DNA of 32,000 bases, taken from contig JBAZRV010000004.1 of assembly GCA_041662745.1 (NCBI GenBank), positions 90,001 through 122,000 of the forward strand. Direction: 5' to 3'. Of the stretch, positions 5,089 to 17,542 are shown one piece after another. Positions within the stretch are counted from its first letter, which is position 1; the number at the start of each line of letters is the position of its first letter. Source of the stretch: Patescibacteria group bacterium. GTDB taxonomy: Bacteria; Patescibacteriota; Patescibacteriia; 2-01-FULL-39-33. The translations under genes were made by a program, and so were the position numbers. The notes beneath the pieces are model-generated. The model was not told where the DNA came from, searched no databases, and saw only the letters and a program-made list of their open reading frames with translations.

Positions 5089-6927
5089 TTAATGGCGCCA
5101 AGCGTATTTTACCCTAACATACCACTCGCTGACGTTAGCCAAGCGATCGCTGTAGCTGGCGATGGAAGTAACGTCAAAACCCTTTAGATTGCTGGACTGG
5201 GGATAGGTATAGGAGGGGCTATAAAGAAAAATCGCCGGCAATTGCTGGGAAATTATTTTTTGGAATTCCCAGTATTTTTCCTGCCTTTGGCCGTGATCCA
5301 AAATACGCCGCGCCGCCTCCAATAAAGCGTCAACCTTGCTATCGGAAAAAACCGCTAAATTAGATCCGGGATATTCATTCTGCGAAGAGTGCCAAAAGGC
5401 AAACGGATCGGGATCGGAAGACATGTTCTCCGAAAACAGCAGGATTTCGTAACGGCGATTGTTGATATTCTCTTGGATAATCTTATTCTTATCCACCGCC
5501 TCAATCGTGGTAATAATGCCTAACTGATCCCAAGATTCCTTGATAATCTTGGCGATAGCCAAATACTGCGGCTGGTCGGGAACGGTCAAAGTAAGACGCA
5601 ATTCATAATCTTTTTTCTGCAATACCTGCTCAATCATGCTATCGCCGGTGGAAGTAGCCACCAGCTTCCAGCCATTGGTTTGCAATAAAGCGGCGGCGGC
5701 TTCCAAATCGTAAGAATATTTCTTGATATCCGGGCTATTGTCAATGCCGGGAAGAATCGGCGCATCAATTATCTTGGCTTGGCCGCCGAACGCTTCCTTA
5801 ACCATTCGTTCCTTGTCCACAGCCAAAGCCAACGCTTGGCGGATATAATCCGCCTGAAGCAAGGCATTCTTCTTTTGATTGAAAAATATTGCGGCATATT
5901 GCGGCTGTTCCAACTCATGCATAACGATATTCTTATGGCGTTTCAAATCAGTCTGATTCTCCCGCGGCAAATAAGCCAAACCGTCCACGCTTTTGTTCTT
6001 TAGGGCGTCCAAAGCCGAATTAACATCGCCGTAGAATTTGAATACTAATTGTTTCAAGTAGGGTTTAGCGCCATAATAATCGGCATTGGCCGATAGCGTA
6101 TAAGATTTAATTACGCCGCTTTTGTCTTTTTTAAAACTCTCCACCTCCCAGGGACCGGTGCCAACGGGCTTCTTGTTCAACTCATTCAAATCGGCATTGG
6201 CTGGCGGAATATTATACCATAAATGTTCGGGCAGAATGCCGAAGGTCAGCATACTGGCAAACGGCGCAAACGGCTCTTTGAGCGTAAACTTCAGGGTATA
6301 ATCGTCAATCTTTTCCGCCACCACTCCGCGGAAACTTTTGGCTAAAGGGCTTTTAAATTCCGTATCCTGCAAAGAGGAAACGGTAAAAATAACATCATCG
6401 GCTTTGAAAGATTCACCGTCATGCCATTTAATATCTTGACGCAGATAAAAAGTATAAACCAAACCATCATTGGAAACCTCATAACGCTCGGCCAGATCCG
6501 GGGTCAACTGATGATTCTTGTCATAGGCCAGCAAAGAGGAAAAAATCAGCCGGCTCAAATCGCCGTCCACGCTATTGGTTTGAGATAGGATCGGATTAAT
6601 AAAACGCGGCGAACCGATCAATCCCTCCGAATACTCCCCGCCAACCTGCGGCAAGGGCACAGAAAAAATGACAAAAACCTTAAACGCCAAAAAAATAAAG
6701 CAAACAACGGCAACAGCGCTAAAAAAACGCAACTGCCTGTTTTCCGACGCTGATAAGAATTTGGGCAAATATTTGAAATGCTTCAAGCGCAAACGCCTGT
6801 TTACATTCAAGCCGAACAGAATCTTTCGGTCATAATGGTGCTGGCGCTTAAAGCGACGCAATTCCAAGTTTTGCCGATCAAAAAATCTCTCAACTTTCCT
6901 TCTGAGATTTTTAAATAAAAAATCCAC
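5089..6927 (-). CDS. ABC transporter substrate-binding protein, family 5 (peptide/nickel type), membrane-anchored (612 aa)
   Basis: YTFYLRQDIKWHDGESFKADDVIFT family-5 SBP signature region. N-terminal basic segment plus one TM helix. Length is typical of OppA/DppA-like proteins. Confidence 0.8.
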   Translation of the reverse strand: MDFLFKNLRRKVERFFDRQNLELRRFKRQHHYDRKILFGLNVNRRLRLKHFKYLPKFLSASENRQLRFFSAVAVVCFIFLAFKVFVIFSVPLPQVGGEYSEGLIGSPRFINPILSQTNSVDGDLSRLIFSSLLAYDKNHQLTPDLAERYEVSNDGLVYTFYLRQDIKWHDGESFKADDVIFTVSSLQDTEFKSPLAKSFRGVVAEKIDDYTLKFTLKEPFAPFASMLTFGILPEHLWYNIPPANADLNELNKKPVGTGPWEVESFKKDKSGVIKSYTLSANADYYGAKPYLKQLVFKFYGDVNSALDALKNKSVDGLAYLPRENQTDLKRHKNIVMHELEQPQYAAIFFNQKKNALLQADYIRQALALAVDKERMVKEAFGGQAKIIDAPILPGIDNSPDIKKYSYDLEAAAALLQTNGWKLVATSTGDSMIEQVLQKKDYELRLTLTVPDQPQYLAIAKIIKESWDQLGIITTIEAVDKNKIIQENINNRRYEILLFSENMSSDPDPFAFWHSSQNEYPGSNLAVFSDSKVDALLEAARRILDHGQRQEKYWEFQKIISQQLPAIFLYSPSYTYPQSSNLKGFDVTSIASYSDRLANVSEWYVRVKYAWRH

Positions 6928-7009
6928 GGTTAAAATTACAAATTATAACTAGCCTAACTATGACTGCCCGCAAGCTCGCGACCGTCAATCAATCGCCAGC
7001 TAAGCGCCG

Positions 7010-7219
7010 CTAATAAAGCGCGTTGAGCAGAGAAACCCCTAAAAAGATTATCGCAATAACGATAGTGGCGTTAAACAGCACTTGTTCCAAACCGCGCTTG
7101 GTCCTGTACACGTTGCCTTCGCCGCCAAAAGCCGCGCCCAAGCCGGTACCGCGATTCTGCAACAGGATTACTGCCACCAAAGCAACGGCGGAAATAAGCT
7201 GAATGACATCTAAAATCAT
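7010..7219 (-). CDS. secG: Preprotein translocase subunit SecG (69 aa)
   Basis: Two TM helices flank the LLQNRGTGLGAAFGG glycine-rich loop typical of SecG. Confidence 0.85.
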   Translation of the reverse strand: MILDVIQLISAVALVAVILLQNRGTGLGAAFGGEGNVYRTKRGLEQVLFNATIVIAIIFLGVSLLNALY

Positions 7220-7417
7220 ATTTAATACGTTTTAATATCTGGTTTTAAGCTGATTTAATACTATCATAAGCGGGACCAAAAGTCAAACCGAAAAAGCAAC
7301 GCCCAACGAACGATTTTCCTTAATCAGCTGGATTTATTACTGATTATTATGCTATAATAAAAAAGATAAAAAGAAGCATTTCCTAATTTATATTTGCCTT
7401 TTAATCTAACTTTTTCT

Positions 7418-9007
7418 ATGCCCCAAACCACAGGCGAAGCCGAATGGCTTTTACAGGCGCTAAAAAAGAATTACAGTCGCTCCGCGCCCAAGGATTCATC
7501 CAAAATAAAACTCAATCAGCTGATATCCAAATTGGGATTTTTTTACGAAAAAGTCAGAAACGCCATTGATTATAATGACGAACATTTGATCCGACGCAAT
7601 TCCCTGCGCCGGCTGATCACCAGGCAAATGAAATTCCTGGCCGAGCGAGATCCGGTTAAGATCGCCGAAACCGTAATTTTTGAATTCATTCGCGCCAAAT
7701 ACCTGCCCAACGATGCCCTGCCGGAAAGCGACATCGAGCAAACCGCGGCCGTTATCGCCAAATACCTGACGCTATTCAATCACCTGCAGAACCATCCGGT
7801 GGCGGAAACCAAAAAAATCAACGATTGGCTTTTGGATCTCCTGACTTGCGAAGTTGACGAATACCTTTTCCCCAACGGCCGGGATATGGCGATGGTTAAT
7901 TTCATGTACGGCGAAATGATCAAAAGCATTTCTTTCGTCAAAAGCTCCCTGGACGAAAAAGAACGCAATCTGCAAATCTACATTGCCGTCCTGAAAAACT
8001 TAATCAAGGCCGATCTGCCGCTGATCCGCTATTGGCTCGTCAAATTATACAATCCGCGCTGGAATTCCTTCACCCCCGACGATATTAAAAAATTCGCTCC
8101 CAATTTGGCCGCTGCCAGAAACAGCATTGAGTTGCATCTTAACCATTATTCCGGCTATCAGATAACGCAGATGATCAAGAAACAGGCCGTCTTCTTCCAA
8201 ATTCTCAGAGAAATCATTGAGCAGAGCGACGACGACATCCGAGAAACAATCAATGATGAGAATAAATTAGAAGAAAAAATCAGCGAGGTCTGCAACAAGA
8301 ACTACAAACGCATCCGCGGCAAACTGATCGGTTCAATCGTCCGCGTCATCATTTATATCCTGTTCACCAAGACTATTCTGGCTGTCATTTTGGAACTGCC
8401 CTACGACCAATTCATCGTCGGCCAGGTCAATTGGTATGCGCTCTTGATCAATATTGTTTTCCATCCCTGCCTGATGTTTGTCATCGCCATGTCCATCAAG
8501 GTGCCGGGACAAAAAAACACCCGGGTCATTATTGAGGAGATCAAAAAAATCATTTACGGCAGCGAACGCAAACTGGTTTATAAGCCGCGCAAACTGTTGC
8601 GTCGCGGCTCCTTCACCTTTATTTTCTTCAACGCCATCTACTTAGTCATGTTCGGCATCTCCTTTGGCGCCGTAGTCGCGGTTTTGCATCGTTTGGACTT
8701 TAACCTGCTTTCCGGCGCGCTGTTCATCTTCTTCTTGACTCTTGTTTCCTTTTTCGGCTTCCGCCTGCGCAATTTTGCCAATCAATTCCTGGTCGTGCCC
8801 CGCAAAGAAAACCTGTGGAATTTCCTGTTAGACTTTTTCTCCTTGCCGATCATCCGCGCCGGCAAATTCTTTTCCACTAATTTTTCCAAAATCAACGTTT
8901 TTTTATACATCCTGGATTTCATCATTGAAACGCCGTTCAAAATGTTAGTGGAATTGCTGGAGAAAGCGCTGTCATTCATCGGTGAAAAACGAGAAGAAAT
9001 ATCTTAA
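7418..9007 (+). CDS. Hypothetical polytopic membrane protein (529 aa)
   Basis: Long ORF with a ~300-aa soluble N-terminal part followed by several TM helices. Start moved to the first ATG (7418), because the track start at 7394 is TTG. No family recognised with confidence. Confidence 0.7.
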   Translation: MPQTTGEAEWLLQALKKNYSRSAPKDSSKIKLNQLISKLGFFYEKVRNAIDYNDEHLIRRNSLRRLITRQMKFLAERDPVKIAETVIFEFIRAKYLPNDALPESDIEQTAAVIAKYLTLFNHLQNHPVAETKKINDWLLDLLTCEVDEYLFPNGRDMAMVNFMYGEMIKSISFVKSSLDEKERNLQIYIAVLKNLIKADLPLIRYWLVKLYNPRWNSFTPDDIKKFAPNLAAARNSIELHLNHYSGYQITQMIKKQAVFFQILREIIEQSDDDIRETINDENKLEEKISEVCNKNYKRIRGKLIGSIVRVIIYILFTKTILAVILELPYDQFIVGQVNWYALLINIVFHPCLMFVIAMSIKVPGQKNTRVIIEEIKKIIYGSERKLVYKPRKLLRRGSFTFIFFNAIYLVMFGISFGAVVAVLHRLDFNLLSGALFIFFLTLVSFFGFRLRNFANQFLVVPRKENLWNFLLDFFSLPIIRAGKFFSTNFSKINVFLYILDFIIETPFKMLVELLEKALSFIGEKREEIS

Positions 9008-9013
9008 AAACAT

Positions 9014-9664
9014 ATGAAATTCAATCTTAAATCGGAAATAATTCCCTGGCTGCTAATCATAGCCAGCAGCATCGCCGCCATTTATTTTTATTTCAATTTC
9101 CCCACCGTCGTGGCCACGCATTGGAATTTTTCCGGCCAAGCCGACGGATTTTCCGGGCGCGGCTTCGGCGCTTTTTTCCTGCCGGTACTGGTCATTATCT
9201 TTTATTTGTTTATGACCCTGTTGCCCTACTTGGATCCCAAAAAGGAACGCTACCAGGAATTCTTCGGCCCCTACCTGGGGTTTAGAACGGTTTTAATCCT
9301 TCTTTTCGTGTTCTTGCAATTCATTACCGGTTTTTACAATCTCGGCTACAAGCTTAATATCGGCCTTGCCGTAGCTTGGCTGATCGGACTCTTAATGCTG
9401 TATATCGGCTGGCTGATGCCAAAAATAAAAAGCAACTGGTTTGTCGGCATTCGCACCCCCTGGACCTTAAGCTCGGAAAACGTCTGGAACAAAACCCACG
9501 CCCTCGGCCGCTGGCTGTTTGTGATTTTCGGCCTGGATCTTATTTTGATGCCTTATCTGCCGGAGACCTGGGCGATTACGGCCTTCATCTTGGGACTCGC
9601 AATTCTGCTGCTGGGCAGTTTCGGCTACTCCTATTGGTTATATCGGCAAGAGAAAAAATCCTAA
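9014..9664 (+). CDS. SdpI/YhfL-like membrane protein (DUF1648 plus SdpI-type, 216 aa)
   Basis: N-terminal TM followed by HWNFSGQADGF (DUF1648-like), then several further TM helices. Starts 6 nt after the preceding gene. Confidence 0.6.
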   Translation: MKFNLKSEIIPWLLIIASSIAAIYFYFNFPTVVATHWNFSGQADGFSGRGFGAFFLPVLVIIFYLFMTLLPYLDPKKERYQEFFGPYLGFRTVLILLFVFLQFITGFYNLGYKLNIGLAVAWLIGLLMLYIGWLMPKIKSNWFVGIRTPWTLSSENVWNKTHALGRWLFVIFGLDLILMPYLPETWAITAFILGLAILLLGSFGYSYWLYRQEKKS

Positions 9665-9724
9665 TTTTTCGTCATTGCGAGCGTAGCGCGGCAATCTCTT
9701 TTACCGTCCTACTCGCTTTTTTCT

Positions 9725-10810
9725 ATGAACCGCTACATTGCTATTAGCGCCATCACAATTTTTTGCTTGCTTGCCATCGGTATCGGCGTCGCTTGGGCGC
9801 CGATTTTTCCTCTGGCCAAACAATTGACGGGAGCGCCGCTGACGGCTCTGCCGCCGAAATCCGACTCCCTGCCGGCCGAGCCGAAACAGGCAACTGCCAC
9901 ACTGATTTTCGGCGGCGATGTCATGCTCTCGCGCAATGTCGGACAAAAAATGGCCAAATACCAAGATTGGTCCTGGCCGTTTGCAAATATCGCCGGACTG
10001 CTGGCGGACGCCGATTTAACGGTCATCAATCTGGAGTCGCCCTTTACCATCGGCGGTTCGCATTTGGTTAAAACCGGATCATTTTCTTTTAACGCCGATC
10101 CGCAAGCGCTGGCCGGACTGGCTCAAGCGGGCATTGATGTGGTCGCTCTGGCCAATAATCATATTTTAAACCAGGGCAAAAAGGGCGTAATTGATACGCA
10201 AAAACTTTTAACCGCTAACGGCATTGCTTTTGCCGGCGCCGGACTCAATGAAAGCGAAGCCGGCAGGCCGGCAATCAAAGAAATAAACGGAATCAAATTC
10301 GGTTTTTTATCTTATGCTTATCCGAATGATTATTCCGTGGCCGGCGCTTCTACGCCCGGACTGGCCGGCATGGACATAAGTAAAATGACAACGGCTGTTG
10401 CCAATTTAAAAACAGAAGCTGACTTGGTGGCGGTCTTAATGCACGCCGGAATTGAATACGTTAACACGCCCAATAAACAACAGGTCGCTTTTGCCCATGC
10501 CGCCATTGATGCCGGGGCCGACCTGGTAATCGGCCATCATCCGCACTGGGCGCAGACCGTTGAGATTTATAACGGCAAACCGATTGTGTATTCTTTGGGC
10601 AACCTGATCTTTGATCAGATGTGGTCGCTGGAAACGCAACAAGGCGCCTTAGCCGAAATAAAAGTGGCTGACAAGCAGATAAGTTCAATCAAGATTATTC
10701 CGATCAAAATCATTGATTACGGCCAAGCGATTCTGGCTACCGGTACGGACAAAGAGTTGACCTTAAAAAGGATGGGATTAAATAATGAGGTAATTAACAT
10801 TAATAATTAA
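9725..10810 (+). CDS. CapA/PGA_cap family metallophosphoesterase-like protein (361 aa)
   Basis: Signal anchor, then FGGDVMLSRNV, NLESP, ANNH and GHHPH motifs characteristic of CapA-type proteins. Confidence 0.8.
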   Translation: MNRYIAISAITIFCLLAIGIGVAWAPIFPLAKQLTGAPLTALPPKSDSLPAEPKQATATLIFGGDVMLSRNVGQKMAKYQDWSWPFANIAGLLADADLTVINLESPFTIGGSHLVKTGSFSFNADPQALAGLAQAGIDVVALANNHILNQGKKGVIDTQKLLTANGIAFAGAGLNESEAGRPAIKEINGIKFGFLSYAYPNDYSVAGASTPGLAGMDISKMTTAVANLKTEADLVAVLMHAGIEYVNTPNKQQVAFAHAAIDAGADLVIGHHPHWAQTVEIYNGKPIVYSLGNLIFDQMWSLETQQGALAEIKVADKQISSIKIIPIKIIDYGQAILATGTDKELTLKRMGLNNEVININN

Positions 10811-10874
10811 TAGTTAAACCGATTAAGAACCGAATTGATTCATTCCCCGGATCAAACTTATATTAAGCAATTTT

Positions 10875-10914
10875 AAAAGCGGAGCATGTCATCACGACAT
10901 TCTCCGCTTTTTTG
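10875..10914. terminator. Bidirectional terminator between convergent genes
   Basis: aaaagcggag ... ctccgctttt stem (10875-10884 / 10902-10911) with flanking A and T runs. Confidence 0.6.
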
Positions 10915-10932
10915 TGCTATTTGGTGGCGCCC

Positions 10933-11994
10933 CTACTTTCGGGTCGCCAACTGGGCCGCTTTGCGCGCCGCCGCCAACATCGGATTGTCTTCCAGACTGG
11001 ATCCGAATTGGCGATCGCGATGAGGCTTCTTGAAACCGGCTCGGCCCGCTTCGGTGAAGGACGCGTCAATAATCTGGCCGAGGCGGTAGATAAGGCCCCG
11101 GAGTCGGCGCTGAAGACGGCTTTTATTGATGGCATCCGGCGAATCATCGCTGATTTCGTCGGGGTCTTTGCCACCCAGCAGAGCCACAGCCGCCTGTCGT
11201 TTGAGGTTCTGGCCCTCGACGAAGATGGGCTCGCCGTCCGGCTTCTCCCAATAGTAGGGACCAACCAGAACTTGCCGTCCGGTCGGCTCACCGGTTTCGG
11301 GATTTACTTCCTCCTCCCGCCGGTAACCCACGCCACACTTCCACTGCTCGAGATTGATCCCGAGCCGGCCATCAGCGAAATGGATCACCGTGACCTTGAC
11401 GAAGCGCTGACCGAAACCCGACTCCAGCACGGTCGTGTGGGAGAATTCCCCACACTCTTTGTCCATCAAATTTTTGTTGATGGACGGCGTAAGCGGCATA
11501 AACCGCTTACCCAACGAACCGCGACTCATGCCACGGATCTTAGCGGTACCGATCAGGATCGGTTCCACCATTCCGGGCATATCCGCCGGCGCCACGATCT
11601 GCGTGGTGCTTCGTCCTCGACGAACCACAACCTCGCCATCGTTGATGCCATTGGCGATGGCGACTTTTCCGATGTCCAGAAACACCTTGTCCATCAAGGC
11701 GTTGCTGATCTCGACGGCGATAGGGACGATCGTCGTCGCTTCCTGGTTGACGGTACCGTCGTCATTGACGGTACTGCAAACCACTGGCAGTCCGCCCGCC
11801 TGGAACATCTCCAGACTGACATTGTCTTCACCATAGCCGGCTTCTTTCACCGTCAACGTCGCTTCCGACGTCTCCGGCGCTTCCGGCTCCTCGGCGACGG
11901 CAACGGCGCCACGTTCCTGCATGGCCGCCAACTCGGCCGCCATCGCTGCATCCGACGTACCATTGCCATTGCCACGACGACTCTTCTTGCTCAT
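10933..11994 (-). CDS. Hypothetical protein, GC-rich orphan (353 aa)
   Basis: ATG at 11994 is preceded by AAGGAG (cggcaaggagacaaacATG). The product has normal, non-repetitive composition, whereas the overlapping + strand ORF is Arg-rich junk. Own consensus promoter and terminator. No family recognised. Confidence 0.7.
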   Translation of the reverse strand: MSKKSRRGNGNGTSDAAMAAELAAMQERGAVAVAEEPEAPETSEATLTVKEAGYGEDNVSLEMFQAGGLPVVCSTVNDDGTVNQEATTIVPIAVEISNALMDKVFLDIGKVAIANGINDGEVVVRRGRSTTQIVAPADMPGMVEPILIGTAKIRGMSRGSLGKRFMPLTPSINKNLMDKECGEFSHTTVLESGFGQRFVKVTVIHFADGRLGINLEQWKCGVGYRREEEVNPETGEPTGRQVLVGPYYWEKPDGEPIFVEGQNLKRQAAVALLGGKDPDEISDDSPDAINKSRLQRRLRGLIYRLGQIIDASFTEAGRAGFKKPHRDRQFGSSLEDNPMLAAARKAAQLATRK

Positions 11995-12497: not shown

Positions 12498-13547
12498 TTA
12501 GTTGCTGAACCGGAAATGACAGACATCGCCGTCCGCCATGACGTAATCCTTGCCTTCCAATCGGATCAAACCTTTTTCGCGCGCTCGCGCTTCTCCGCCT
12601 GCCGCCGCCAAATCCTGCCACTTGATCACTTCGGCGCGAATAAATCCTTTTTCAAAATCCGTATGGATGACTCCGGCCGCTTGCGGCGCTTTAGTGCCGC
12701 GCTTGATGGTCCAGGCCTTGGTTTCCATTTCACCGGAGGTAAAATAAGTAATCAAGTCCAAAGCGTTGTAAGCCTTGACGATCAGCCGATCAAGCCCGGA
12801 CGCCTCCAACTGCAATTCCTTTAAATACGCTTCGGCTTCTTCCGCCGGCAATTCAGCCAGCTCCGCTTCAATCTTGGCGGAGATGGTCAGGTAGTCGGTT
12901 TCCTGATAAACTTTATCCTCGTCAACATTCAAAACATAAATCATCGGCTTCATGGTCAGCAAACATAAGTCCTTAACTAATAATTTTTCTTCCTCGGCGC
13001 TGACAATCTCGCTGGCTAATTTTCCCGCTTCCAAGCCCGTCTTTAATTTCTCCAAAATCGGCTGGAGTTCCAGGGCTTCCTTTTTGCCGGCGCGCGCTTC
13101 TTTGTTGTTAGCGTCATATCTCTTTTCTATTGTCTGCATATCAGCCAAAACAAGTTCCAGATTAATCACCTCGCGATCCGACTGCGGATTGACTTGGCCG
13201 GCCACATGAATGACGTTCTCATCGGAAAACTGACGCACCACTTGGACGATGGCGTCCACTTCGCGGATATTGGCTAAAAATTTATTGCCCAGCCCTTCGC
13301 CCTTGCTGGCGCCCTTGACGATGCCGGCAATATCAATGAACTCAATCGCGGTCGGCACGATTTTCGCGGAATTGGAAACGCGCGCCAATTGTTCCAGACG
13401 CTCGTCCGGCACCGGCACTACACCGACATTAGGATCAATCGTGCAAAAAGGATAATTGGCTGCATCAACTTGTTTTTTGGTCAGGGCTTTAAATAACGTG
13501 GACTTGCCCACATTGGGCAGGCCGACGATGCCGATGGAGAAAGACAT
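12498..13547 (-). CDS. ychF: Ribosome-binding ATPase YchF (349 aa)
   Basis: [19 protein letters not shown]-loop, [10 protein letters not shown], the [11 protein letters not shown]3 region, and the C-terminal TGS-like segment GFIRAEV. Confidence 0.95.
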
Positions 13548-13641
13548 AATTTAAAAGGTTAAAAATCGTAAAAACAAGAATCTGTGAAATCATTAAGATT
13601 TAGTTGCTCGTGAATTTAAATAAACTGCATTTATTGCCTAA

Positions 13642-13670
13642 ACTATAGCAAAGTAACCTGAAAAAATCAA
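13642..13670 (-). promoter_or_regulatory. Sigma70-type promoter for ychF
   Basis: The minus strand reads TTGATT (13670-13665), a 17-nt spacer, then TATAGT (13647-13642). Confidence 0.45.
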
Positions 13671-13694
13671 GGATTGCCCTCGGCAAAACTATTA

Positions 13695-13727
13695 AATTAA
13701 AAGGGGGCAGTAATCGCTTACTGCCCC
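13695..13727 (-). terminator. Terminator of the PspA-like operon
   Basis: Perfect 10-bp stem ggggcagtaa / ttactgcccc (13704-13713 / 13718-13727) with loop tcgc. It is followed on the minus strand by a T-rich run and lies 37 nt after the stop at 13764. Confidence 0.7.
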
Positions 13728-13763
13728 GCAAATAAAGTGCTTTTTTAATTCAGCTTGTTCAGT

Positions 13764-14492
13764 TCAGTTTGCCTTGGCCGCCTGAAATTCGGCCATCAGA
13801 CCGGCGTCAATATCCTGAGCGTCCAGCTGAGCTAGCGCCGCATCCACGTTGAAGCCGGAGGAGGCATCCAAATCGCGGTCGATGTCGCCATCCGATCGGA
13901 ATTCTGCTTGAGCCGCAACCAACTCACCCTGGAGTTCACCCAGGAATGCGGTATCAACCTTAGCGCCGCCCTGAGCCCGCGCCCGATCGCGCATCGCTAC
14001 CGCTTGCTTATGAGCTTCAATCGCCTTGAGCATAGCGGGTCCGTTTTGGCGGATCGTGTTCAATCCGGATAGGGCTTCATTGTAATTGGCCCGAGCGAGC
14101 TTGTAACTCTCCTCGAGAGTACCATAGGTTACCTTCTGACTCGCGATCGCGTCGTCAAGGGATTTGACCTCCTGCGATACCTGGCCGAGTTGCGCTGTCT
14201 TGTCCGGTTGATCAACCAGGCTGCCGCCCAAGCCGACGAGCTTGATCCGACGAACCTGCAGAGCTTCCAACGGCTCCAATTCTTTGGTTTCCGGATCGGC
14301 GATCGCGCGCATTTGGGCGCCGATCTGCCGCGCCAATATTCGCTTTTCCTGGACTTGCTTTTCCAGTTCCGCGATGATTTGCGTCAATTTTTCTTCCGGC
14401 GATAAGGCCGAGGCCAAAAGCCCCTGCAATCGACTGCCCATCGCCTTGAAAAACATGCCAATATTAACTTTCTTGTCCATCGCTTGCGACAT
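13764..14492 (-). CDS. PspA/IM30 (ESCRT-III superfamily)-like protein (242 aa)
   Basis: ATG at 14492 is preceded by GAGGAG. The N-terminal region MFFKAMGSRLQGLLASALSPEEKLTQIIAELEKQVQEKR matches the PspA pattern (amphipathic helix, then P-E-x-x-L-x-Q-x-I-x-E-L-E). The remainder is long helical heptad-like sequence with an acidic C-terminus. Confidence 0.6.
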   Translation of the reverse strand: MSQAMDKKVNIGMFFKAMGSRLQGLLASALSPEEKLTQIIAELEKQVQEKRILARQIGAQMRAIADPETKELEPLEALQVRRIKLVGLGGSLVDQPDKTAQLGQVSQEVKSLDDAIASQKVTYGTLEESYKLARANYNEALSGLNTIRQNGPAMLKAIEAHKQAVAMRDRARAQGGAKVDTAFLGELQGELVAAQAEFRSDGDIDRDLDASSGFNVDAALAQLDAQDIDAGLMAEFQAAKAN

Positions 14493-14565
14493 TGATTTGT
14501 CTCCTCTTTTGTTGCGATTTCTGGTTTCTGATTTGAATAACGACTTACGGCTTACTAACAAAAAA

Positions 14566-15303
14566 TTAAAGCAAATCACTCACATCAACCGACGGTTCAA
14601 ACTTTTCTCCCAGAAACAGTCCGCCGGAACCTCTGGCCTCGCCCTTTCTGGCGTCCAAATAAATCAGCTGCCTGTCACCGCCCCGTTCGCGCGAAGTGAC
14701 AAAGTACAACCGATCGTCGTTTTCAATGGCATCGCATTCTCCGTCCACCTGAGCATCAAACGTACCGATATCAATGATTTCCCAAGTAACACCGGAAGTT
14801 AAACTCGACGGCAATTCGTATGGCACGGGTTCAGACTGGTCATTCTCCTTAAAGATCCGTGCCGGTCCCGGCTTACCCTCAACCCCTTTATAAAATTTCA
14901 TCAAGGACATTGATTCCAACTTCGTGGCCCTTAGCCAAATCGGTTTACCGCCTTCTTGGCTGGGTACCTTAAAAATCCAGATACCTCCCGCCAAAGCCAA
15001 TGCCTTGGAAACTGCCTCGGTTTTAGACCAAGGCGAATCCGGTGTCTTCTTAAACATCTCCCACAAAGTAACTGAGGCTTTGACTGCCCGTTCCGACTCT
15101 CCCAATAGAGTAATCGTTTGCTGGGCCAATGTCTGTTCCAACCGCTTATGCATAGGCGGTGGGGTATCAAGTGAAACCAGGTTACGAGGTTGTTTGGCCA
15201 CTTTATTTCCAACAACCAGCGCTTTTTTGTTTTTAATCAGACAACCAATACCTACGCCGGAAGCCAAGATAACAAAGAGCCCTAATAGTGACAAAAAATC
15301 CAT
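14566..15303 (-). CDS. Membrane-anchored hypothetical protein (245 aa); C-terminal half possibly DUF4178-like
   Basis: ATG at 15303 is preceded by AAGGAG. One N-terminal TM helix. The C-terminal stretch VTWEIIDIGTFDAQVDGE...LIYLDARKGEARGSGGLFLGEKF is reminiscent of DUF4178, but this is unverified. Confidence 0.7.
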   Translation of the reverse strand: MDFLSLLGLFVILASGVGIGCLIKNKKALVVGNKVAKQPRNLVSLDTPPPMHKRLEQTLAQQTITLLGESERAVKASVTLWEMFKKTPDSPWSKTEAVSKALALAGGIWIFKVPSQEGGKPIWLRATKLESMSLMKFYKGVEGKPGPARIFKENDQSEPVPYELPSSLTSGVTWEIIDIGTFDAQVDGECDAIENDDRLYFVTSRERGGDRQLIYLDARKGEARGSGGLFLGEKFEPSVDVSDLL

Positions 15304-15362
15304 GTCTTTTCTCCTTCTTCGTTTAGACTACCAATTGAATAAACAATGTTCATTCTTTTTGT

Positions 15363-15545
15363 TCACCAACCGCCACTGTCGCTGCTGGAACTGCTACTGC
15401 CCCAACCGCCACTGTCGCTGCTGGAACTGCTACTGCCCCAACCGCCACTGTCGCTGCTGGAACTGCTACCGCCCCAACCGCCACTGTCGCTGCTGGAACT
15501 GCTACTGCCCCAGTCGCTCCAACCGCTGCTGGAACTGCTACCGGA
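15363..15545. repeat. 36-bp tandem repeat, 4 near-identical copies plus a degenerate partial copy, inside the 3' end of the 607-aa gene
   Basis: The unit aaccgccactgtcgctgctggaactgctactgcccc occurs at 15368-15403, 15404-15439, 15440-15475 (one t>c change) and 15476-15511. A degenerate continuation runs to about 15545. Confidence 0.95.
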
Positions 15546-17186
15546 ACTGTCGGAGTCAAAAGAAAACGATGATGTGCTCTGACTATCTTGGTAATCGTCG
15601 TAGGCTTTTTTAGCCTTCCGACCAGTGTCATCAGCTAACTGATATGCTTGATCGGCATTAAACACAGCCGATTCGTAACGCCTGTCGGAAGCGTCACGGC
15701 GAGCTTGGGCCAAATGGCTTTTAGCGGAATCAAAATCCGACTGAGCCGACGAAGAATGGCTGCCATAACTTTCAACACTATCTTCGTTGTCATCAATCAT
15801 TCGTTCAGCTCGGCGTTCTTGATTGGGCCAATCTAAACGATACGATTCTAAATCATCAACTCTCTTCGTGAACTGTAGCAAAAAACGATTGACCTGAGAC
15901 AAATCACGATCGCCATTGGTTATTTCCGAATCAGCCAATTTGTAATCTTGATCCTCGGTCGCAATTCTTTGGGCTTTAGCCAAGCGCTCCCTGACCCATG
16001 AAAGATCGTCGCTGGCCAATGTTACATTGTCAGCCACTGGCGACCAAACGGTTTTCGCATGAAGATCAAGTTTGGCGCGGAGCTGCCGCGCCTGATTAAG
16101 GCCGTTTTGAGCAGTCGCAATGTTAGAAGCCAAAATTGCAATATTATTCCTAACCTTCTCCGCCATTATTAGTTGCTGATCGGCCCCCCTAATCGCTTCG
16201 TTAGCCAACTCAGCCGCCTTAAGCGCGTTGCTGTAAACCAAGGGCAGATCATATTTGCCCCCTTCAATAATTGCTTGCGAAGCCTCGGTGGCAACGGCAA
16301 ACAACTGTTCCGCTTGACGCAAATCGGCGTAAGGTTGCTTGAGCGCCTTAGCTGCCAATAGCGGGCCTTTGCCGACCAAATTGTCAAGATAACTGTTGGC
16401 CGACGAAATGCTGTTTTGAGCCGACACCAACCTGTCTTTCGCGTTGGCTTGCGCTTCTTGATAGAAGTCAAGATTGCTTGCCACTTTGGAAACAAAGGAG
16501 TCAATGGAGTCGACGAGCAAAGAGGTGGCGGTTAGCAAGTCGCGCGCTTGATTGGGATCACCCAACTGGTCGGAACTCTCAACCGGCAACAAATCGGAAA
16601 TCTTTTTCAAATTGCCGGAAGCCTTATCAAGACTGATTTTTGCTTCCGACAACTCTTCAAGATTTTGGGCTGCATACTTGGACAAGTACTGACTGCCCTC
16701 GCTGGACAACCTTTCCTTGGCCGAACCGTAAGCCCGATTCTTCTCCTCCCATCCCAGCTGAAGCTGGCTCAATTCCTGACGATCATCCTCGGTTACTTTT
16801 TCTATAGCCGCCAATTGTTCATTGGCGTTTTCCAACGCTCTCTGCGAAGCCTTGATAAATTTTTCGGCTTCAATAGCCTGCGCCTTCTTTTGCTTGGACT
16901 TGCCGGCCGCATCCGCCTGCTTGATGTCTTCCTCAGCCTGACTGAGATTGATTCGCCCCAACTCAATTAAGTCGGAAATCGGGACTGAATATTCCGGTTT
17001 ATACCAACTGGAAACAGTGCCGAATTCAGATTGGAATTGCTCAATAGCCAATGATTGCTCAATCGCCTCCTGCCTAACTCCGGCCAAACACTTGTCGGCC
17101 AGACGCTTAGGCGCGGACATGACCAGCCATAGGCCGGACATCATAGCGATAATCAACAGAATAATCAGGACTTTTGACTTGTTCAT
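15363..17186 (-). CDS. Membrane-anchored long coiled-coil protein with Ser/Gly/Trp-rich repeat tail (607 aa)
   Basis: ATG at 17186 is preceded by AAGGAG. N-terminal TM helix, about 500 aa of helical repeats (an EzrA-like architecture; homology not established), and a C-terminal (SSSSSSDSGGWG)n tail ending in W. Confidence 0.8.
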   Translation of the reverse strand: MNKSKVLIILLIIAMMSGLWLVMSAPKRLADKCLAGVRQEAIEQSLAIEQFQSEFGTVSSWYKPEYSVPISDLIELGRINLSQAEEDIKQADAAGKSKQKKAQAIEAEKFIKASQRALENANEQLAAIEKVTEDDRQELSQLQLGWEEKNRAYGSAKERLSSEGSQYLSKYAAQNLEELSEAKISLDKASGNLKKISDLLPVESSDQLGDPNQARDLLTATSLLVDSIDSFVSKVASNLDFYQEAQANAKDRLVSAQNSISSANSYLDNLVGKGPLLAAKALKQPYADLRQAEQLFAVATEASQAIIEGGKYDLPLVYSNALKAAELANEAIRGADQQLIMAEKVRNNIAILASNIATAQNGLNQARQLRAKLDLHAKTVWSPVADNVTLASDDLSWVRERLAKAQRIATEDQDYKLADSEITNGDRDLSQVNRFLLQFTKRVDDLESYRLDWPNQERRAERMIDDNEDSVESYGSHSSSAQSDFDSAKSHLAQARRDASDRRYESAVFNADQAYQLADDTGRKAKKAYDDYQDSQSTSSFSFDSDSSGSSSSSGWSDWGSSSSSSDSGGWGGSSSSSDSGGWGSSSSSSDSGGWGSSSSSSDSGGW

Positions 17187-17323
17187 GGTACTTGATTCTC
17201 CTTTTGTTGCCGGTTAATTAAGTTGCCTCAAATTGAGATACCCTGAAAGACATTATAAAAACTATTAAATTTTAAGGTTCCCAGCCTAAAGAAACCAAAA
17301 TTATAGCCACTTTAGAATTTTGC

Positions 17324-17352
17324 ATTCTATCATATCCTTAATAATTTGTCAA
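17324..17352 (-). promoter_or_regulatory. Sigma70-type promoter of the PspA-like operon
   Basis: The minus strand reads TTGACA (17352-17347), a 17-nt spacer, then TAGAAT (17329-17324). This places it about 135 nt upstream of the ATG at 17186. Confidence 0.55.
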
Positions 17353-17489
17353 ATAAAAATACAACAAAAAGATGCGAGGGATTGAATAATTCAACCGCCT
17401 GGGGCATTTTAAGTCGAGACCAATCCGGCCGAAAACAGAAACAGATTTATGGTATTGTCATGAAGAGAGGGTAATCCGCGCTTTTTTGA

Positions 17490-17518
17490 TTGAAAATATA
17501 ACTGCTTTTTGTTAAACT
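17490..17518 (+). promoter_or_regulatory. Sigma70-type promoter (extended -10) for the glycosyltransferase gene
   Basis: TTGAAA (17490-17495), a 17-nt spacer, then TGtTAAACT (-10 at 17513-17518). This places it 25 nt upstream of the ATG at 17543. Confidence 0.45.
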
Positions 17519-17542
17519 AAAGAAGTTAACCCAACACGGTTT

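Follow-up and report, generated by a model that had tools for sequence, protein, structure and literature searches.

A three-gene accessory operon of a groundwater Patescibacteria bacterium that probably encodes a remote PspA/IM30 relative and two membrane partners

What kind of system is encoded by a compact three-gene cassette that escapes the current protein family models? The cassette in question (g1-g2-g3) is located on the minus strand of a 32,000-nt stretch of DNA from a Patescibacteria group bacterium (assembly GCA_041662745.1, contig JBAZRV010000004.1), a small groundwater organism whose genome is 98% complete. This whole stretch is referred to here as the window, and all coordinates are window positions. 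The three genes are served by a single strong promoter and a single strong terminator, and their products (607, 245 and 242 amino acids) did not match any Pfam or NCBIfam model, giving only sub-threshold coiled-coil noise. PspA, Vipp1 and ESCRT-III proteins are thought to be near-universal membrane remodellers, and the data presented below make it likely that the cassette is an accessory operon that maintains or remodels the cell membrane from its inner face, by means of a PspA-like polymer and two membrane partners. The trio is thus probably a PspA-type system, all three components of which escape current family models.

The argument begins with g3, a soluble, all-helical protein for which an exhaustive HMMER search returned 52 relatives. 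When a 64-sequence profile of the g3 family was compared by hhalign with a shallow profile of eight genuine PspAs (E. coli PspA and YjfJ, one actinobacterial protein and five from Patescibacteria that PF04012 had detected), a probability of 69% was obtained (P 4e-5), with 154 co-linear columns that place residues 26-203 of g3 onto residues 19-187 of PspA. The best profile match was YjfJ from E. coli, whose family, also represented by a shallow profile, gave 82% (P 1e-5) over 147 columns. The shallowness of both profiles reflects what the searches yielded: the contig search with YjfJ returned close relatives only, and tblastn against plasmids returned almost only enterobacterial copies. Reversed-profile controls remained at or below 0.5% (P 0.12-0.33), while the coiled-coil profile of g1, used as a further control, gave 0.3% against the g3 family and 0.2-5% against PspA and YjfJ (P 0.008-0.33).

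Protein language-model neighbours and structure prediction point in the same direction. The 100 nearest clusters of g3 in the ESM-Atlas were, without exception (100/100), either named PspA/IM30 or annotated with PF04012, with a score of 0.95 and 213 of 256 features in common. The AlphaFold2 (AF2) model consists of a short N-terminal helix, a long helical hairpin and then more helices (residues 11-26, 32-64 plus 74-92, 96-174, 182-203 and 230-241), which is the helix layout of ESCRT-III (α0, a long α1/α2-3 hairpin, α4 and α5), although hairpins of this kind are common, so that the layout is a necessary but not a specific feature. The model aligns in register with residues 20-157 of Vipp1 and residues 9-142 of PspA, and it holds in α1 a conserved, family-specific kink (ADPET..LEPLE). 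The helix LMAEFQAA at the C-terminus of g3 is likewise conserved. Foldseek placed Vipp1 at rank 1 among the structures of the Protein Data Bank (PDB). Among the AlphaFold Database (AFDB) clusters, rank 3 was occupied by Q8ZKA0, a protein unnamed in the output which we take to be Salmonella YjfJ, and rank 4 by a cluster named 'Phage-shock protein'. Because the profile-profile comparison, the language-model neighbours, the Foldseek ranking and the genomic context described below agree, g3 is probably a remote PspA/IM30 homologue and, within the PspA superfamily, it is probably closest to the YjfJ branch. The PspA/IM30 assignment proposed in an earlier note on this DNA is consequently retained as a probable remote relationship, based on hhalign, ESM-Atlas and Foldseek, but not as a match to PF04012.

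The second protein, g2, holds an N-terminal membrane helix followed by a beta-rich domain, and the single transmembrane helix that had been announced for it was indeed the only one found. Its AF2 model has a mean predicted local distance difference test (pLDDT) value of 90.2 and, when compared with the AFDB clusters by Foldseek, it retrieved DUF4178 proteins at E-values from 4e-11 to 1e-2, with 7 of the 14 top matches named DUF4178. The best match is a 243-aa protein of the same length and architecture (E 4e-11; template modelling scores 0.63/0.64; residues 3-245). On the basis of this model, it can be stated with confidence that g2 shares the DUF4178 fold. The DUF4178-like nature that the earlier note had suggested for the C-terminal region thus stands at the level of fold, but not at that of the Pfam hidden Markov model (HMM), since PF13785 did not match g2 at E up to 10, nor three distant g2 homologues at E up to 0.1. 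No resembling solved structure was found, either by fold or by searching PDB sequences with a profile of the g2 family. The hydrophobic helix is preceded by no Lys or Arg residues and followed by four, and the domain is therefore predicted to face the cytoplasm. A kinship with YjfK (DUF2491) was also considered and discarded (hhalign 0.07%).

In the first protein, g1, an N-terminal membrane helix (residues 6-24) is followed by an extended helical region, and then by a C-terminal module that is conserved (about residues 445-545) and by a Ser/Gly/Asp/Trp tail. This tail is a (SSSSSSDSGGWG)n repeat encoded by a tandem repeat at the DNA level, and the protein ends in ...SSSSSSDSGGW. Nine g1 homologues share the C-terminal block WP...YGS.SSSA.SDF.SA...LA.GTG...AY, and every homologue terminates in Gly/Ser/Asp repeats with Trp, Tyr or Phe. 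Both the repeat unit and the copy number vary between homologues (SSSSSSDSGGWG in this protein and SSSSYSDGGGY in a 78%-identical homologue of the set P0062-P0066). The repeats are nearly perfect at the DNA level, which suggests a rapid repeat turnover. The tail is similar in kind to that of the E. coli TPM protein YgcG, a low-complexity likeness that is no proof of homology, and the nearest shapes to the Atlas model of g1 include TPM_phosphatase proteins from Actinomycetota. No TPM_phosphatase domain (PF04536) was detected in g1, and the protein looks like a PspA partner of the YdjH type minus the TPM domain. The description of g1 in the earlier note was right about the N-terminal anchor and the Ser/Gly/Trp repeat tail, but the 'helical repeats' were not confirmed, since self-BLAST revealed no internal sequence repeat outside the tail. 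The EzrA-like character also attributed to it is only an analogy of architecture: no similarity to EzrA was detected, with no match to Pfam (PF06160) and no EzrA in a search of PDB sequences with the nine-sequence g1 profile, which retrieved only keratin and Smc coiled coils at E-values above 0.07.

The three genes are co-inherited. The trio appears in the same order in seven loci (L012, L014, L016, L021, L019, G429 and G432), in which the identity of g3 ranges from 84% down to 25% and the genes flanking the trio are unrelated between loci, so that the co-occurrence elsewhere that the earlier note had called for is borne out. A different arrangement is found in genome G148, from another class (L040, G148:C1), where the g3 homologue (6912-7676) is not preceded by g1 and g2 and has no DUF4178 gene alongside, but is followed instead by the gene of a 1027-aa protein (7842-10925). 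In this partner, a signal sequence and a domain of ~190 aa precede a membrane helix, after which come a very long helical region and a Ser-rich tail. The possibility that this partner holds a TPM domain was rejected, as no Pfam match was obtained.

The topology, physical interactions, polymerisation and physiological role of the trio, as we infer them, would be the following. The protein g3 would be a very divergent PspA/IM30 (bacterial ESCRT-III) hairpin protein acting at the cytoplasmic membrane face, where it may polymerise on stressed or curved membrane. Both g1 and g2 would be single-pass membrane proteins with their bulk probably in the cytoplasm, g1 providing a helical scaffold of ~580 residues with a Ser/Gly/Trp tail like those of PspA partners of the TPM/YgcG/YdjH type. 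At the membrane, these two proteins may serve to recruit the PspA-like polymer or to regulate it, which is the part that YdjGHI plays for Bacillus PspA.

Partners of these two types are not unprecedented, because both DUF4178 and YdjH-type proteins have already been published as PspA partners. According to Ravi et al. (2024, PMC11237479), the only publication mentioning DUF4178 that a literature search returned, pspA operons of the YjfJ type include DUF4178, which is beta-rich and predicted to be intracellular. YdjH is a conserved Firmicute PspA partner, and the published partners include membrane proteins of the YdjH type, with a coiled coil and a low-complexity tail (PMC11237479). The YjfJ-type operons (type: E. 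coli yjfIJKLMC) are similar to the cassette in that a PspA-family helical gene is located beside a beta-rich gene with the DUF4178 fold. However, the cassette lacks the CesT/Tir (YjfI), DUF350, spermine synthase and ATP-grasp genes, g2 has a membrane anchor, and neither g2 nor g3 is recognised by the respective HMM (DUF4178 and PF04012). In the Ydj/TPM type of Bacillus, PspA is also paired with single-pass membrane proteins, and in one of them a long coiled coil is combined with a low-complexity tail (PMC11237479). In contrast, g1 has no TPM domain, and the cassette lacks both the band-7/flotillin (YdjI) and the zinc-ribbon (YdjG) partners. The classical Psp (PspFABC) and Lia (LiaIH) systems resemble the trio in that the presumed effector belongs to one and the same superfamily and is paired with partners anchored in the membrane, but neither Pfam nor NCBIfam revealed a PspB, PspC, PspF, LiaI, LiaF or Toastrack homologue in the operon, and no regulator gene is adjacent. 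The earlier note was therefore correct in stating that the partners are not the PspBC/LiaIH set. With regard to EzrA (PF06160), an N-terminal membrane anchor followed by ~500 helical residues is common to both proteins, but there is no sequence or profile similarity, and EzrA neither holds a Gly/Ser/Trp tail nor is an accessory gene.

The features of the locus are collected in Table 1. One promoter, three minus-strand genes with AGGAG-type ribosome-binding sites, spacers of 59 and 73 nt and one terminator are all present, as had been reported. The promoter is the top promoter-like site within positions 13400-17700 in a consensus scan, and it is also present in L012, a relative with 84% identity. 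Each start codon is preceded by a ribosome-binding site (AAGGAG, AGGAG and GAGGAG). An N-terminal hydrophobic helix is predicted once in g1, once in g2 and not in g3. The leader did not match Rfam, and its folding is not better than that of shuffled sequences (z = -0.43), indicating no structured RNA.

Table 1. Coordinates of the cassette and its associated features in the window.
Feature	Position	Strand	Basis or remark
Sigma-70-type promoter TTGACA-N17-TAGAAT, extended -10 TG	17324..17352	-	Consensus scan, 11/12 matches
5' leader, about 130 nt	17187..17323	-	Holds the right copy of the 14-bp direct repeat
g1, 607 aa	15363..17186	-	Open reading frame (ORF)
36-bp tandem repeat, 4.9 copies, 93% matches	15366..15541	-	Encodes the (SSSSSSDSGGWG)n tail of g1
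g2, 245 aa	14566..15303	-	ORF
g3, 242 aa counted from the ATG after the GAGGAG motif	13764..14492	-	ORF
Intrinsic terminator, 10-bp stem (6 G-C), then T-run CTTTTAATTT	13704..13727	-	Consensus scan
14-bp direct repeat AAAACTATTAAATT, left copy	13685..13698	.	Just past the terminator
14-bp direct repeat AAAACTATTAAATT, right copy	17258..17271	.	Within the leader, downstream of the promoter

Several lines of evidence indicate that the cassette is probably an accessory, laterally moving unit. Among the sampled genomes, g3 is present in 2 of 401 from the phylum, in 6 of 61 relatives and, within the genus, in 1 of 8 other genomes. The cassette is flanked in the window by ychF and the glycosyltransferase gene, and in four congeners these two genes are direct neighbours, separated by 91-160 bp and without the cassette, while the cassette occupies this same site in G401 and L012, and G402 has g1 at a contig end. 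The genes and the terminator, but not the promoter, are bracketed by an exact 14-bp direct repeat, AAAACTATTAAATT, which has only these two copies in the 32-kb window. When the two intergenic flanks were shuffled 2000 times, a 14-mer match never arose, and a 9-bp core of the repeat, ATTTAATAG, is found on both sides of the cassette in L012. This repeat could be a target-site or att-like insertion scar, or a common regulatory motif. Next to the cassette, the window showed neither an integrase nor a transposase.

The lateral acquisition proposed in the earlier note had been based on GC content, with 60-nt spot counts of 58.3% (line 13861) and 45.0% (line 17701). Both counts are right but unrepresentative, and the contrast was overstated. 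The stretch 13695-17352 has 49.2% GC, against a genome mean of 44.6%, which corresponds to the 97th percentile of equal-size windows (~+1.5 standard deviations). By gene, g3 has 56%, g1 50% and g2 48%, with 50.5% for the neighbouring ychF, and in GC at third codon positions only g3 is extreme (98th percentile), g1 and g2 being ordinary. Judged on this genome alone, the GC difference is within gene-to-gene variation. A comparison across loci adds that the cassette has a GC content above that of its flanks in 7 of 7 loci checked (in G429, 45% versus 31-34%), g3 being the richest gene every time. Codon usage is mildly atypical, as the synonymous codon choice of the three genes lies at the 8th, 13th and 18th genome percentiles, and that of ychF and the glycosyltransferase gene near the 80th. 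Lateral mobility is accordingly plausible because of the presence or absence at one site, the differing flanks, the patchy distribution, the codon usage, the GC content above that of the flanks and the direct repeat, even though GC alone did not show it.

The assignment of the trio to a PspA-type system has to be weighed against a number of unfavourable results. A PspA profile match for the 242-aa protein, on which the earlier note had made its own call depend, was not obtained with PF04012: g3 showed no PF04012 or NCBIfam match at E up to 10, and PF04012 also failed on 15 distant g3 relatives. PDB sequences searched with a 26-sequence g3 profile yielded no PspA or Vipp1, and the hhalign values of 69-82% are short of the customary 95% level. 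The AF2 model of g3 is moderate (pLDDT 72.6, with residues 1-17 below 50) and its N-terminal helix is weakly amphipathic. The fold itself, a generic long helical hairpin, does not discriminate: VIA-align gave Z-scores of ~9 for Vipp1 and PspA, and likewise for FliJ, YscO, colicin and PI3K iSH2, and when the g3 model was used to search the ESM-Atlas by shape, only generic helical proteins were retrieved. Regarding the partners, the topology of g1 is ambiguous (two Lys or Arg residues before the helix and four after), and a resemblance of its C-terminal module to DUF4398 bundles, which are found together with OmpA and LysM domains, was also noted. Finally, the sequencing runs that contain cassette sequence are DNA groundwater metagenomes only. 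Part of these results would be expected if g3 were an unrelated coiled coil that converged on a hairpin, the trio being a lineage-specific membrane scaffold for division or shape (cf. EzrA, DivIVA and GpsB) without PspA kinship, a proposal also favoured by the EzrA-like layout of g1, with its N-terminal anchor and long helical region. Nevertheless, such a scaffold is rather unlikely, given that the hhalign signal is co-linear over ~150 columns and far above both the reversed and the coiled-coil controls, that the language-model neighbours of g3 are uniformly PspA/IM30, that the adjoining DUF4178 fold is otherwise known from PspA operons, and that g1 has no EzrA match. Moreover, a division scaffold is unlikely to be absent from most congeners.

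Other alternatives accept the cassette as a unit and assign it a different task. Surface proteins often have Ser-rich repeat tails whose coding DNA is a perfect tandem repeat, and proteins in which DUF4398 accompanies OmpA or LysM domains lie outside the cytoplasm. The tail of g1 encoded by a tandem repeat, its DUF4398-like module and an N-terminus that can be read as a signal peptide (a hydrophobic stretch up to ...LVMSAP) would therefore fit an envelope module, in which the helical part of g1 would be outside, its Ser-rich fibril serving host attachment, with g2 and g3 aiding export or anchoring. This is decidedly improbable in view of the absence of a signal peptide or hydrophobic segment in g3 and of the charge distribution of g2, which places its domain in the cytoplasm. 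Furthermore, the tail of YgcG follows the last hydrophobic stretch and a QKRASGR segment, so that it is read as cytoplasmic by the positive-inside rule, and the long helical region of the G148 partner comes after a second membrane helix and then basic residues. It has also been considered that the cassette might travel on a mobile element and have a function in conflict, for instance in anti-phage defence or exclusion via membrane perturbation, instead of one in housekeeping repair. The variable occupancy of one site among congeners, the patchy distribution, the direct repeat at both flanks, the GC content above that of the flanks in all seven loci and the atypical codon usage would all be compatible with this function. 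However, neither PADLOC nor PHROG matched any of the three proteins, no integrase or transposase adjoins the cassette in the window, no enzymatic effector domain is present, and a stress-protection module is equally possible as the load of a mobile element; the conflict function is for these reasons very improbable. The membrane maintenance operon described above is thus the preferred account. A bolder version of it, in which the trio would be a mobile ESCRT-III-like cassette of Patescibacteria, with a minimal PspA-like polymer, two membrane receptors and a fast-evolving Trp-tipped tail that tunes membrane or polymer binding, and with a role beyond stress repair (vesicles, division or host-cell contact), is considered unlikely.

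Of the 401 Patescibacteria sampled, only 5 have a PF04012 match above the cut-off of the model. In the whole genome studied here there was no match at E up to 1, while controls such as E. coli and B. subtilis were detected, and the genome is without a canonical PspA. A literature search combining Patescibacteria with PspA or ESCRT-III returned no paper on a PspA-like system in this group. A probable PspA-type family, accompanied by PspA-type partners and missed by standard HMMs, suggests that surveys undercount the superfamily in reduced, host-dependent bacteria. In addition, a compact cassette with three genes, one promoter and no regulator, variable among close relatives, is a tractable unit for heterologous tests, which could address the way in which a PspA-like polymer cooperates with DUF4178 and with coiled-coil anchors that bear a tail. 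To our knowledge, no mechanism is known for DUF4178 or for the tail-bearing coiled-coil type of partner.

Some additional observations were made on related and neighbouring genes. In L016 (6873-11552), three same-strand genes come after the trio (538, 352 and 639 aa), and the 639-aa product has a PF00004 AAA domain; for a system like ESCRT-III, a dedicated ATPase would be noteworthy. In other Patescibacteria, the gene that comes after each canonical PF04012 PspA gene (L001, 578-1372; L002, 548-1414; L046, 2262-3041) encodes 259-288 aa, and the two products that were read are membrane proteins with a coiled coil, so that this gene looks like a second, different conserved PspA partner in the phylum. 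Outside the phylum, copies of pspA with 90-95% identity to E. coli PspA were found in 441 plasmid records, most of them from Klebsiella, Enterobacter, Salmonella, Citrobacter and Escherichia. Lastly, a minus-strand ORF of 353 aa located just past ychF in the window (10933-11994) has a GC content of 59.4%, the highest of about 700 long ORFs of the genome.

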